Shown here piece after piece: positions 1,276-60,224 of a DNA stretch of 64,000 bases. The notes beneath the pieces are model-generated. The model was not told where the DNA came from, did no database searches, and saw only the letters and a list, made by a program, of their open reading frames with translations. The position numbers and the translations under genes are program-made. Origin of the DNA: Octopus vulgaris (Eukaryota); the NCBI GenBank assembly GCA_951406725.2, contig OX597832.1:9858001-9922000 (forward strand), written 5' to 3'. Every line of letters begins with the position of its first letter. Position 1 is the first letter of the stretch.

Positions 1276-2702
1276 TATTATTATTATTATTATTATTATT
1301 ATTATTATTATTATTATTATTATTATTATTATTATTATTATTATTATTATTATTATTATTATTATTATTATTATTATTATTATTATTATTATTATTATTA
1401 TTATTATTATTATTATTATTATTATTATTATTATTATTATTATTATTATTATTATTATTATTATTATTATTATTATTATTATTATTATTATTATTATTAT
1501 TATTATTATTATTATTATTATTATTATTATTATTATTATTATTATTATTATTATTATTATTATTATTATTATTATTATTATTATTATTATTATTATTATT
1601 ATTATTATTATTATTATTATTATTATTATTATTATTATTATTATTATTATTATTATTATTATTATTATTATTATTATTATTATTATTATTATTATTATTA
1701 TTATTATTATTATTATTATTATTATTATTATTATTATTATTATTATTATTATTATTATTATTATTATTATTATTATTATTATTATTATTATTATTATTAT
1801 TATTATTATTATTATTATTATTATTATTATTATTATTATTATTATTATTATTATTATTATTATTATTATTATTATTATTATTATTATTATTATTATTATT
1901 ATTATTATTATTATTATTATTATTATTATTATTATTATTATTATTATTATTATTATTATTATTATTATTATTATTATTATTATTATTATTATTATTATTA
2001 TTATTATTATTATTATTATTATTATTATTATTATTATTATTATTATTATTATTATTATTATTATTATTATTATTATTATTATTATTATTATTATTATTAT
2101 TATTATTATTATTATTATTATTATTATTATTATTATTATTATTATTATTATTATTATTATTATTATTATTATTATTATTATTATTATTATTATTATTATT
2201 ATTATTATTATTATTATTATTATTATTATTATTATTATTATTATTATTATTATTATTATTATTATTATTATTATTATTATTATTATTATTATTATTATTA
2301 TTATTATTATTATTATTATTATTATTATTATTATTATTATTATTATTATTATTATTATTATTATTATTATTATTATTATTATTATTATTATTATTATTAT
2401 TATTATTATTATTATTATTATTATTATTATTATTATTATTATTATTATTATTATTATTATTATTATTATTATTATTATTATTATTATTATTATTATTATT
2501 ATTATTATTATTATTATTATTATTATTATTATTATTATTATTATTATTATTATTATTATTATTATTATTATTATTATTATTATTATTATTATTATTATTA
2601 TTATTATTATTATTATTATTATTATTATTATTATTATTATTATTATTATTATTATTATTATTATTATTATTATTATTATTATTATTAATATTATTATTAT
2701 TA
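1276..2702. repeat. (ATT/TAA)n microsatellite, about 1.43 kb, nearly perfect
   Basis: Uninterrupted ATT repeat except one variant near 2687; explains the poly-L/I/Y ORFs. Confidence 0.99.
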
Positions 2703-3349
2703 CATTTTTTTCTTCTTTCAAATTTGCTTCCATTTCTTGCCGAGTGTCTTCCCGACTCCTAGGGCAAAGAAACTCATAGTATACATTGGTTGGCCATTAA
2801 ACCAAACTCAGTAGTTCGTTCATTTTTTTTTAAAGTTAAATTAAAATACATGAGCAGCAACAGTTCTCACATCGACAATGCTCTTCTCATAACGTGTGAT
2901 GTACCAGTTAAGACAATCTTTTGCACTTCTTGCAGGGATGGTAAGCCAGGGATCATTCTCATATAATTTTCGGTTCCCTTCTTAATCATTCCTAGTGCTC
3001 CTACGATCACTGGTATTGTAACCGCCTTGAGATGCCACATTTTCTCAATTTCAATGAGTAGGTCTTTATATTTTCTGAGCTTGCCAAACTCTTTCGCTGA
3101 GATATTATGATCACAGGGGATGCTCATGTCGATCAATAAGCAAACTTTATTGTTTTGGTCTTTGACAACAATATCTGGTTTATTGGCCTTGATGGTTCGG
3201 TCTGTATGTACTGGAAAGTCCCACAGAATGGTTACATTTTCTCCTTCAGTTACAGCCTCAGGGTGGTGATTATACCACTTGTCGGCAGTTTTGATATTGT
3301 AATGCCGACTTATTAGCCAGTGGAGATATTGGCCAACTCTGTCATGTCT
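2703..3349 (-). mobile_element. 5'-truncated R4/Dong-clade non-LTR retrotransposon: RLE endonuclease C-terminus plus 3' UTR
   Basis: Open minus frame 3349->2867: RHDRVGQYLHW...ILWDFPVHTDRTIKANKPDIVV...IDMSIP...KYKDL...IPVIVGALG...LQEVQKIVLTGTSHVMRRALSM; (TAA)n on both flanks. Confidence 0.92.
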
Positions 3350-4816
3350 TTATTATTATTATTATTATTATTATTATCATCATTATTATTATTTTTATTA
3401 TTATTATTATTTTGCAGCGGAATTATATTTTATGCTAGAGATAGCCCAGCCTAAGTGGAGCAAATTTTAGATTAAATTCTTGAATTAAATTGCACGTTTG
3501 AATTTACTATATTATCAAAATAGTCATGTAGCAGACAAATAGATGATTGTGCCAAGGTATTCGAATTGTTATTGCTACTATTTACATTATAGCTGGTGAC
3601 TAAAATATTGTTACCTTAATTCGGCGAGGAAGAACAATTTCTAATAGCACTGGTTATCATTCAGGTGTTGCTAGTATAAATGTCATTAAATATTAAAATT
3701 TTCTCTGAAATCCGCAGTCCAAAAGCTGAAACCATTATACAATTGAGAACATTATTATACGCAACACAATTTCTTCGATTTCAATGGAATGTTATTGTAA
3801 TTGGTTCTACCAATACTAAAACGAAGCAACACGTAAAATTCAGTAAAAACTTAAATAACTTAAATCATTTAGTTAAGTGTTCTACTTTACTCGATGGAAA
3901 ACAAAACTCACACAATATATTAGGGCTATTTTTTAAGAAAAGAAAAGTTATTGAAACAAATAACGAAAATATAATATAAATGGATTCCAAATAGTGTAGT
4001 TCATGAAACTAAGCTGTAATTCGAAAAAATAGAATGCAACTGATGACCAACCCTCCTTAAATAAAAGCACGATGTACTGTTTCCCCTCGACTTCATTATC
4101 CCTTTCATTCGACTGCATTTCGATCGGTTGTGAAATAAATTTCGTCTACTTCATCTTGTTGTATTTGGTCCTTGATTTAGCTGAGATCATTTCGTACCTC
4201 TTGCTGATTTTGTTGATTTTTTTTTACTTCTGTTTATTGTTGCCTGTATTGGTGGGGCGGTGGTACCATAATGATAGAGATTTCACCCTTTTTACGGAGG
4301 GGTGTATATCTCAACAAATGCCTCAAAATCGTGAAGCTTTGCGTTTCACTGTGCGCTGTCAGCTTGTTCTATGCAAGAAGGGAACAAATATATTTCACTT
4401 TCTTAAAGTTTAAAATGACAGGTTGCATAGGTATATATTTATTATTAGTTATTTTTTCTGACAAACTACTATGTTGAGTATATTCAAACAACGAGATCGA
4501 ACAACTTTGGTAAACATGTACATTAAAGTTAAAATTTAATTTCTGCAGTAACTGTTAAACTTTATTGTTCCTCGAGCTTCTCTATAGTTTGACACCTATG
4601 GTTATATGTTGCTGTATTTTATTTCTTCAATAGGTAACATTTGAGTATACATTCATTATTGAAAAAGAAATGATTTAAACATACTGTAAGGAACGCATTT
4701 GTATCTATGTCTTTTTTCTCTACCACAAGATGTCCACGAAAATCTCGAAAGCTCTAATGTAACCAACTCTTTCGTAAACCGAATTTTGCCATTTTGGTAT
4801 TTTCCAATGAAAATCA

Positions 4817-4990
4817 AGGCAGGGAACTGGCAAAATCGGTTACACGCCTGGCGAAATGCTTAACAGCAGTTCGTTCGTATATATTTTATGCGATCATATT
4901 TCTCAGAGATCGACTTTTCAACTTTTCGTCCTTTCGGTGTTGATACAATAAATGCCAGCTGATTGCTGGGGTCGATGCTATCGACTTAAT
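4817..4990 (+). mobile_element. Degenerate tRNA-derived SINE (family A)
   Basis: Diverged match to 50179-50413: GGC..CTGGCA head, TCCTTTCGG..GAT core, GGGGTCGATG. Confidence 0.65.
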
Positions 4991-5980
4991 CAGGTTTTAA
5001 TGAACTTGTGACAGGATGTGAGACCAATATGCTACAATGAAATACCAGATCATGATATTCTGTTGAAAAATTGCTGATAGCAATATACCTGTATTCATAG
5101 GTTGCTTATGACCTTTAGCATGTTAGTTTGTGAGATTGTGTATGTGACTGAACATTTGCGCGAAACTGTGTGTGTGAGAGAGAGAGAGAGAGAAAATGAG
5201 AGAGAGAGGGTGCGTAATAACTCATCCAAAAATGTGCAATTGGAGATGAACCACGTAGATGTGGAATGTAGATATACGGTATCGAGGAGTACACAATAGC
5301 CTATGTTGAAGCATTTGGATCATTGATAAGAAGTGGGCTTGAATCGGCATATTTCAGATATTCTGAACATTTAAACGTTTTTAATGTAAGGGCAAATCCC
5401 AATAAGTTTAGGGGAGAAGGTATCTGCAATCTATCCAAAATTTACTAGGTTACAATGTCTAATTTTGACGAAAAGGAGAAATATTATCATGCTTTCCATA
5501 TTTATATATCTATGTTTGCGTGCATAAACAATTGGCGTAGACGAATTTATCAGATTTATGAACAGGTTCAGAAATGACGCACAGGAAAAATGCAGGGTTG
5601 TAGGTAGAATAGAGAAAAATTATGTGTAAAAAATATATGAGCAATAAAACTATAAATCTTTATAAATATGTAAAAGAATATATATAATATATATATAAAT
5701 TCTACCTTCCACTCAGCATTTTTTCCTGTGCTTATATAGACGTGTCAATGAATTTTTGAGCGCGTGTTTGGGGGTGTGCGTGTGGGCGGGAATGTCAGTA
5801 TATAGACGTGTGCGTATGTGTGTATGCGAGTATGTGCGTATATAGACGTGTTTGAATCTTATGGCTTGTTTTTTTTTACACCTTTTTACACATTTTCCTG
5901 TATTTTGCCTTTAGCCCTGTTTTTTTTTTTGTACATGTGCATATATAGACGTGTGTATGAAACTTTTTTGTGCGCGTGTC

Positions 5981-6540
5981 TATGCGAACGTGTATGCGGT
6001 TACGTATATATTTTTTGGTTTGTGCGAGCGTGTATGCGGTTATGTATATAATTTTTGGTTTGTGCGAGCGAGTATGCGGTTATGTATTTATTTTTTGGTT
6101 TGTGCGAGCGTGTATTTGGTTATGTATTTATTGTTTGGTTTGTGCGAGCGTGTATGCGGTTATGTATATATTGTTTGGTTTGTGCGAGCGTGTATGCGGT
6201 TATGTATATATTTTTTGGTTTGTGCGAGCGTGTATGCGGTTATGTATATATTTTTTGGTTTGTGCGAGCGTGTATGCGGTTATGTATATATTGTTTGGTT
6301 TGTGCGAGCGTGTATGCGGTTATGTATATATTGTTTGGTCTGTGCGAGCGTGTATGAGGTTATGTATATATTTTTTGGTTTGTGCGAGCGTGTATGCGGT
6401 TATGTATATATTGTTTGGTTTGTGCGAGCGTGTATGCGGTTATGTATATATTCTTTGGTTTGTGCGAACGTGTATGCGGTTATGTAAATATTTTTTGGTT
6501 TGTGCGAGCGAGTATGCGGTTATGTATTTATTTTTTGGCA
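5981..6540. repeat. 40-bp minisatellite, about 14 copies
   Basis: Unit TGTGCGAGCGTGTATGCGGTTATGTATATATTTTTTGGTT with few variants. Confidence 0.97.
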
Positions 6541-59715: not shown

Positions 59716-59808
59716 TCCACCATTATCATTATCATTATTATTATTATTATTATTATTATTATTATTATTATTATTATTATTATTATTATTATCATCATTA
59801 TTATTCAT

Positions 59809-59953
59809 GTCACTGCTGGAATCAAACTCGGAATCTTGAAGTTAGTAGCCCGCACTCTTAACCACTACATCATATGTTCACGGGTATATGGCGTAGAGGT
59901 TAAGAGCGCGGGCTACTAACCCCAAGATTCCGAATTCGATTCCAAGCGGTGAC
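59809..59953. repeat. Head-to-head palindrome of two tRNA-like (Pol III A/B-box) sequences
   Basis: 59809-59879 is the reverse complement of 59882-59953; each arm has a TGGCGTAG(A/T)GG-like A-box and a GA(A/G)TT(C/T)GATTCC B-box, followed by (TAA)n. Confidence 0.88.
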
Positions 59954-60102
59954 CTGAATGATAATAATAATAATAATAATAATAATAATAATAATAATAA
60001 TAATAATAATAATAATAATAATAATAATAATAATAATAATATAATAATAATAATAATAATAATAATAATAATAATAATAATAATAATAATAATAATAATA
60101 AT

Positions 60103-60154
60103 AGCTGCGCTCGGTAGTGAAATGAAAGCACGCTATAAAATAAAATAAAAACTG
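60103..60154 (+). mobile_element. 52-bp 3'-terminal tip of the Dong element inserted in (TAA)n
   Basis: AGCTGCGCTCGGTAGTGAAATGAAAGCACGCTATAAAA matches the reverse complement of 15948-15997. Confidence 0.88.
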
Positions 60155-60224
60155 AATAATAATAATAATATCATCACCGAAAAATATTTTAGGAATGAGA
60201 ACACAGGTTCGAAATTTCACCAAG

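Follow-up and report, generated by a model that had tools for sequence, protein, structure and literature searches.

R4/Dong-type retrotransposon copies at TAA repeats in a 64-kb stretch of the Octopus vulgaris genome

Introduction

Why do retrotransposon copies of very different preservation lie beside TAA repeats, and on the same strand as these, in a single stretch of the Octopus vulgaris genome? The stretch in question, hereafter the window, comprises 64,000 nucleotides (nt) of contig OX597832.1 in assembly GCA_951406725.2 (positions 9,858,001 to 9,922,000), and all coordinates below are counted from its first letter. An earlier note made from the sequence had proposed that several lineages of the R4/Dong clade of retrotransposons without long terminal repeats (non-LTR retrotransposons) use (TAA)n as an orientation-specific landing site, that they may lengthen this target themselves and that they form a candidate repeat-targeted system. 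We conclude that, very probably, each lineage nicks TAA microsatellites that are already present and reverse-transcribes its RNA there, which leaves the repeat reading TAA on the same strand as the element. This conclusion builds on the observed domain layout, 5' truncation, sense-strand TAA at four 5' junctions fixed by homology, and the presence of at least three lineages and insertions of several ages.

Results

Copies and their TAA arrays

We used the window's own open reading frames (ORFs) and 118 homologs as queries in translated searches. These recovered five pieces with protein homology, which belong to a single kind of retrotransposon and lie on the minus strand (c1, c2, c3, c4 and c6, the latter a sixth copy at 57818-58310 that the earlier note had not included), besides the short fragment c5, the sole copy on the plus strand, which sits in a plus-strand TAA array. 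The window has a GC content of 33% and is dense in microsatellites. The copies, with their untranslated regions (UTRs), reverse transcriptase (RT) and restriction-like endonuclease (RLE) domains, and their flanks are as follows (lineage letters are explained below).

1276..2702, minus: (TAA)475 array, ca. 99% pure, 3' flank of c1
2703..3349, minus: c1, lineage B, 5'-truncated, 3' UTR of ca. 165 nt
3350..3411, minus: degenerate (TAA)20 array at the 5' junction of c1, adjoining the start of homology at a distance of 0 nt
15821..15947, minus: (TAA)41-42 array, 3' flank of c2, followed by CTA/CTG repeats
15948..18995, minus: c2, lineage A, 5'-truncated, with RT (YMDD), CCHC knuckle and RLE; 2 stops, 1 frameshift
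18996..19029, minus: (TAA)10-11 at the c2 5' junction, with CTA/CTG repeats before it that resemble those past the 3' array
29311..29346, minus: degenerate (TAA)12, 3' flank of c3
29347..33365, minus: c3, lineage A, old, near full-length, 5' end not fixed by homology
33379..33776, minus: compound (TAA)110-(GAA)9-(CAA)7+ array upstream of c3
57818..58310, minus: c6, likely lineage D, decayed, lacking both ends, immediately behind c4
58311..58335, minus: degenerate TAA-like run with fewer than 3 perfect units, spacer between c4 and c6
58336..59721, minus: c4, lineage C, decayed, 5'-truncated; 9 stops, 6 frameshifts
59722..59805, minus: (TAA)28 array at the c4 5' junction, doubling as the tail of the left arm of a pair resembling short interspersed nuclear elements (SINEs)
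59806..59956, no strand assigned: inverted head-to-head pair of tRNA-like short elements, TAA tails outward
59957..60103, plus: (TAA)47-49 array at the c5 5' junction, doubling as the tail of the right SINE-like arm
60104..60154, plus: c5, lineage A, 51-nt fragment of the 3' end
60155..60169, plus: (AAT)5, 3' flank of c5

The 5' ends of c1, c2, c4 and c5 were set by homology, and in each case a sense-strand TAA array lies 0 to ca. 13 nt away. For c1, c2 and c4 these boundaries are independent of the repeats: protein homology starts at 3349 in c1 and at 18986-18992 in c2, and the merged match interval of c4 ends at 59721. Copies c1, c2 and c5 have sense-strand TAA arrays on both sides, as c3 would if its 5' end lies near 33365, while c4 has TAA on its 5' side only and c6 has a degenerate array there only. 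The match of c5 to the 3' end of c2 includes the flanking TAA and reaches 90% identity over 70 nt. Beyond the TAA on both sides of c2 lie similar CTA/CTG repeats (71% identity over 114 nt, of low complexity), as expected if one compound microsatellite had been split.

A random junction in the window, with rates taken from the window itself and its copy-flanking arrays included, has a sense TAA array of at least 3 units just upstream with a probability of 0.0018 if a distance of up to 10 nt is allowed, 0.005 for up to 30 nt and 0.0125 for up to 80 nt, and the joint chance of three independent junctions within 30 nt is ca. 1e-7. A 5' flank with no more TAA than background, which the earlier note had named as one observation that would overturn its proposal, is not what we find, given a chance of 0.0018-0.005 per homology-fixed junction. 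Nine of the 13 TAA arrays with at least 4 units touch a copy and four touch none; no copy ends on any of the 52 (AT)5+ runs of the window.

That five copies abut TAA, as proposed earlier, was borne out for both sides of c1, c2 and c5 and for the 3' side of c3, but not at 58400, where c4 lacks an array, nor for the 5' end of c3, which homology leaves unfixed. All readable copies of the window do read TAA on their sense strand, at 5' as well as 3' junctions.

Relatives beyond the window

Among metagenome relatives, 461 loci were confirmed in 14 of the 64 parts of the collection, and the best 80 of these yielded 46 truncated 5' junctions with at least 40 nt of flank, or 44 after two duplicate insertions had been dropped. 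Locus L008, first scored as sense, was reassigned to antisense by hand. Sense TAA adjoins 30 of the 44 junctions, antisense TAA 2 and neither 12, compared to a background sense-TAA rate of 2.8% across 11,877 positions. Random orientation, the second observation named beforehand as fatal to the proposal, was therefore not seen (30 sense vs 2 antisense). Of 49 readable 3' ends, 34 have TAA and 5 TTA, and the full-length loci L029 and L050 carry TAA on both sides.

Some arrays are exceptional: antisense (TTA) arrays occur at the 5' junctions of L008 (225-257) and L056 (1409-1435 and 1837-1866), a CAA/CAG stretch and then a TTA run follow the copy in L022 (ca. 3290-3467), and ATG-type runs lie at the 3' ends of L005 and L015, hinting at some lineages with looser or shifted targets. 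In the near-full-length loci L033 (ca. 107-180) and L058 (ca. 10-90), a tRNA-like head with A and B boxes recognized by eye stands right after the 5' array, with no TAA between it and the ORF. This head could be a pol III promoter; ARAGORN made no tRNA call in 12 relative loci and Rfam found nothing on the two heads. Several units that look structured recur in the 5' UTR of L050 (74-346); they are possibly ribozyme-like motifs in tandem.

At least half of the sequence words of c2 are present in 20 of the 24 sequencing runs listed (7 organism codes, 12 studies). No RNA run is listed among the carriers, which has no bearing on expression. In four runs, 19,603 to 82,899 contigs mapped on c2, and in every one of them the depth declines from the 3' toward the 5' end, which fits 5' truncation; the summed contig depth is not a copy number. 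Most contigs lack the internal stop of c2, and a public protein (P0452) that is 96-98% identical to c2 runs unbroken through its stop and frameshift. One run (X3) contains a head-to-tail joint between a copy truncated at 17062 and a 3' end at 15940. Among viral contigs, 76 pattern matches were obtained and none was confirmed.

Identity of the elements

By sequence and a predicted fold, all copies are classed as non-LTR retrotransposons of the R4/Dong type. Copy c2 matches RVT_1 (E=1.7e-32) and zf-RVT (E=6.6e-6, just under the cut-off of that model), and it is colinear with single-ORF homologs of 1100-1250 amino acids (aa), the size of most of the 758 relatives that a protein search returned from 8000 scored candidates. 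The order within this single ORF, from RT over a CCHC zinc knuckle to a C-terminal RLE, is that of R4/Dong elements. The RLE of c1 is unbroken over 160 aa (2870-3349) and retains the P-D, D and K motif residues, which are conserved in a 16-sequence alignment, and a block conserved at the N-terminus of the homologs is matched by 32748-32915 of c3. R4/Dong elements are described with a diverged N-terminal Myb/SANT-like domain and no N-terminal zinc fingers (PMC7998251); Pfam found no Myb domain in 16 family members.

Identities of 41-54% link the RT core of c2 to 11 selected proteins, whose sources are shrimp, psyllid, louse, moths (including Bombyx), starfish, ctenophore and some unnamed ones, and Pediculus and Bombyx elements have been described as R4/Dong-like (PMC7998251). 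The Bombyx protein (P0154, 41%) is unnamed and not established as Dong itself. As the searches yielded no protein under the name Dong or R4, we base the assignment to the clade on architecture, neighbouring proteins and the literature; on these grounds, the R4/Dong identity proposed earlier holds, with the RT, zinc knuckle and RLE layout and with louse, lepidopteran, shrimp, starfish and ctenophore proteins as neighbours. In some longer relatives (P0017, P0098, P0115 and P0118), the RT is accompanied by an OTU-like cysteine protease domain (PF02338).

R2 elements (PDB 8gh6, 9dou, 9nl2 and 9nl3) share RT homology (E 1e-29) and the endonuclease fold: at E<=0.001, the PDB sequence matches of c2 are R2 proteins only, and the top 5 structure matches to the predicted fold of the c1 RLE (predicted local distance difference test score 88.6) are all R2. 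We nevertheless rejected R2 membership, as R2 targets 28S rDNA and the window contains no rRNA, and as the RT is far more distant from R2 (E 1e-22 to 1e-29) than from R4/Dong-like proteins (E down to 1e-181 for single-copy ORFs). The nematode R4 element, of the same clade according to the literature (PMC7998251 and PMC3774820), has an rDNA target; we liken it by description only.

Dong is described with a self-cleaving ribozyme resembling that of hepatitis delta virus (HDV) at its 5' end (PMC3774820). No such ribozyme was found in c3, where Rfam gave 0 matches on the heavily decayed 5' region (32700-33460). On 6 near-full-length relatives, Rfam gave no ribozyme match and one chance match on a TAA run, and a descriptor of HDV-like ribozymes, used without a positive control, matched 0 of 7 sequences.

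Lineages and ages

By sequence comparison, the five copies named earlier form three lineages. Copies c2 and c3 align at 73.7% identity over 3056 nt including a shared 3' UTR and pair with a support of 99, and c5 matches the 3' end of c2, so these three constitute lineage A. Copy c1 (lineage B) is 70% identical to the homolog P0014 and 59% to c2, and its 3' UTR is unrelated. A clade of c1, c2 and c3 was not rejected (p=0.19), so the split between A and B rests on identity and the unrelated 3' UTRs. Copies c4 and c6 fall apart from these, in a group with a support of 96-98 and with ctenophore and starfish proteins in its clusters; each stands beside a different neighbour, both on long branches, and c6 likely adds a fourth lineage. 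All trees are quick trees, made with 69 of the 171 homologs with a full RLE match and then with 23. Monophyly of the five protein-bearing copies was rejected (approximately unbiased test, p=7e-6, 28 rows), and so were five separate lineages among the named copies, c2, c3 and c5 being one.

The earlier view of several lineages thus stands with three, likely four, and not with five distinct ones; in the same way, the supposed difference of proteins and 3' UTRs applies to c1 but not within c2, c3 and c5.

Decay was counted on a frameshift-aware reading with X placed at breaks. Lesions per 100 aa amount to 0 in c1, 0.3 in c2, 3.6 in c3 (which spans homolog aa 65-1221 with 21 stops and 22 frameshifts), 3.3 in c4 and 4.8 in c6. 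This range agrees with the decay from none to heavy described before and with insertions of several ages.

Discussion

A probable shared landing site and the points against it

By analogy to the target-primed reverse transcription of R2-type elements, the endonuclease would first nick the strand that reads TTA, and the freed 3' end would pair with the UAA-ending RNA and prime the cDNA, fixing the orientation. A truncated cDNA would then join the upstream part of the array, so that one array becomes both the 5' and the 3' flank, and any target duplication would be hidden inside the repeat. The tails that earlier copies and SINE-like elements leave would offer further landing sites, which fits c6 behind c4, c5 behind a SINE-like tail and the head-to-tail joint of run X3.

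Several observations weigh against this interpretation. In the window, N-terminal homology of c3 reaches only 32915, leaving its 5' end (ca. 33365) unfixed, and GAA9 and CAA7 runs separate the copy from the 110-unit TAA array. The spacer between c4 and c6 is degenerate, with the c4 3' UTR running to ca. 58336 and a TAA-like run preceding c6. The 5' array of c4 may merely be the tail of a later SINE-like insertion, since it is also the tail of the SINE-like pair. Among the relatives, 12 of 44 junctions have no array and two (L008 and L056) an antisense one; 30 of the 44 belong to one family (23 sense), and the remaining 14 from nine families comprise 7 sense, 1 antisense and 6 without array, and a sense array occurs in only 5 of the 10 families with a readable junction. 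In the contigs of the four runs, a TAA array was seen at 1 of 16 loose ends on the 5' side of the element, with 24 of 5794 loose ends listed; the other 15 resemble diverged element sequence, and the loose ends listed are too few to give a flank rate. The evidence for targeting comes from filled sites in one 64-kb window and the metagenome relatives, and the tree of the copies contains no named Dong or R4 protein and no outgroup.

Do the elements build their own target?

A further proposal is that the elements not only target TAA but lengthen it substantially with each insertion by reiterative copying of their tail and so build a niche. The 475-unit near-perfect array 3' of c1, the copy without coding lesions, would agree with this, and the longest perfect run of any other motif is only (AT)66. 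However, no more than 2 of 5 copies have a longer array on their 3' than on their 5' side (units 3'/5': c1 475/20, c2 41/10, c3 12/110, c4 degenerate/28, c5 5/47), long arrays are also larger targets, and replication slippage or an assembly effect could have yielded the 1.4-kb run, for which no reads were checked. The run at 1276-2702 could be biological or an assembly effect. We therefore consider substantial extension unlikely and did not uphold the earlier suggestion that the elements extend their target, which a single array fits. We are similarly doubtful of the wider scheme in which diverged Dong lineages share and build the TAA site while SINE-like passengers seed more of it in a self-reinforcing niche. 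If it were true, most TAA microsatellite in the genome (9 of 13 arrays here touch a copy) would be made by retrotransposons, and target building, if shown, would tie these elements to microsatellite growth.

It is considerably less probable still that TAA is only the tail of the element and that 5' arrays arose by template jumping onto such a tail or by slippage. This reading draws on within-element joints with TTA-type letters between their parts (e.g., 16263 to 16169 in run X1; 12 of 184 such rows are listed) and on the high occupancy of arrays by copies. It is opposed by the embedding of both TAA flanks of c2 in similar CTA/CTG repeats, by the 5' array of c5 that is continuous with a SINE-like tail, by the 110-unit compound array upstream of c3 and by the four arrays that touch no copy. 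The least probable account, a loosely A/T-directed insertion followed by retention in harmless microsatellite-rich DNA, would suit the composition of the window and the relatives' junctions without array, but we rejected it as the main cause because (AT)n runs are four times commoner than TAA arrays (52 vs 13) with none at a copy end, and because it leaves unexplained the strand orientation of the relatives (30:2) and of all readable window copies.

SINE-like pair and other repeats

Each arm of the pair at 59806-59956 is a tRNA-like sequence of ca. 75 nt with A and B boxes recognized by eye, and the hairpin has a z-score of -14.6. ARAGORN found no tRNA in the window, and an Rfam scan at gathering thresholds gave 0 matches there, rRNA and the SINE-like pair included. 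The last few letters ahead of the TAA are shared by the arms and lineage A copies, and the arms may be passengers of Dong. A 535-nt segment with no protein match (34336-34870) is bounded by two TAA arrays (34214-34335 and 34871-34908) that point the same way and is possibly a non-autonomous element using the TAA site. At 34871-35001, a TTA array switches directly to TAA, forming a palindromic microsatellite junction beside a SINE-like copy.

Another short interspersed repeat, with copies 70-93% alike and some of them tandem or inverted, is found at 14741-14981, 21340-21519, 33992-34230, 35003-35244, 48618-48779, 50110-50589, 51876-52535 and 53350-54202. A run of ATT, read on the strand of the repeat itself and opposite in sense to Dong, closes the copy at 33992-34230. 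A 40-bp minisatellite occupies 5719-6538 with ca. 14 copies at 94% identity and a diverged extension.

Comparison to known Dong elements

Insertion of Dong into TAA repeats, which the earlier note had taken as known, is indeed published: PMC3812793 names Dong, DongAg and, from a snail, DongBg as elements that target TAA, and together with PMC7998251 this preference covers insects, a snail, cnidarians and an ostracod. TAA-specific elements are known as Dong in Bombyx mori, DongAg in Anopheles gambiae, DongBg in Biomphalaria glabrata and Dong1/Dong2 in Darwinula stevensoni, and the claim of a candidate new repeat-targeted system cannot be maintained. What differs here is the host and the presence of three to four lineages within 64 kb. 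Given the known specificity of Dong, we regard the pattern of the window as real but ordinary, likely reflecting the landing preference described for Dong elsewhere. Targeting of multicopy sites has been viewed as a survival strategy (PMC4640811).

Among molluscs, R4-Dong elements are almost confined to cephalopods according to PMC10294476. For O. vulgaris, PMC13282606 gives 51 Dong-R4 families spanning 92.7 Mb, of which its Table 1 lists 5 as recently active with 1129 insertions; the word "target" is absent from the text examined. For O. bimaculoides, PMC9115989 describes a full-ORF Dong consensus and no evidence of recent Dong activity. A motif search of supplements for published octopus Dong families gave no match, with 8 of the 12 PMC9115989 files covered. 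We found no report of a TAA target of cephalopod Dong or of a cleavage assay in the literature searched, which covered few subscription journals and did not extend to Repbase entries.

Implications

With the window, the target preference already published gains a further genome, one with several old lineages at a common site. New Dong copies inside TAA arrays may escape insertion callers that depend on unique flanks, and such missed calls could bear on the differing activity reports for O. bimaculoides and O. vulgaris (PMC9115989 and PMC13282606). The existence of P0452, a sibling of c2 with an open frame, should make the cleavage preference of the clade accessible to assay.

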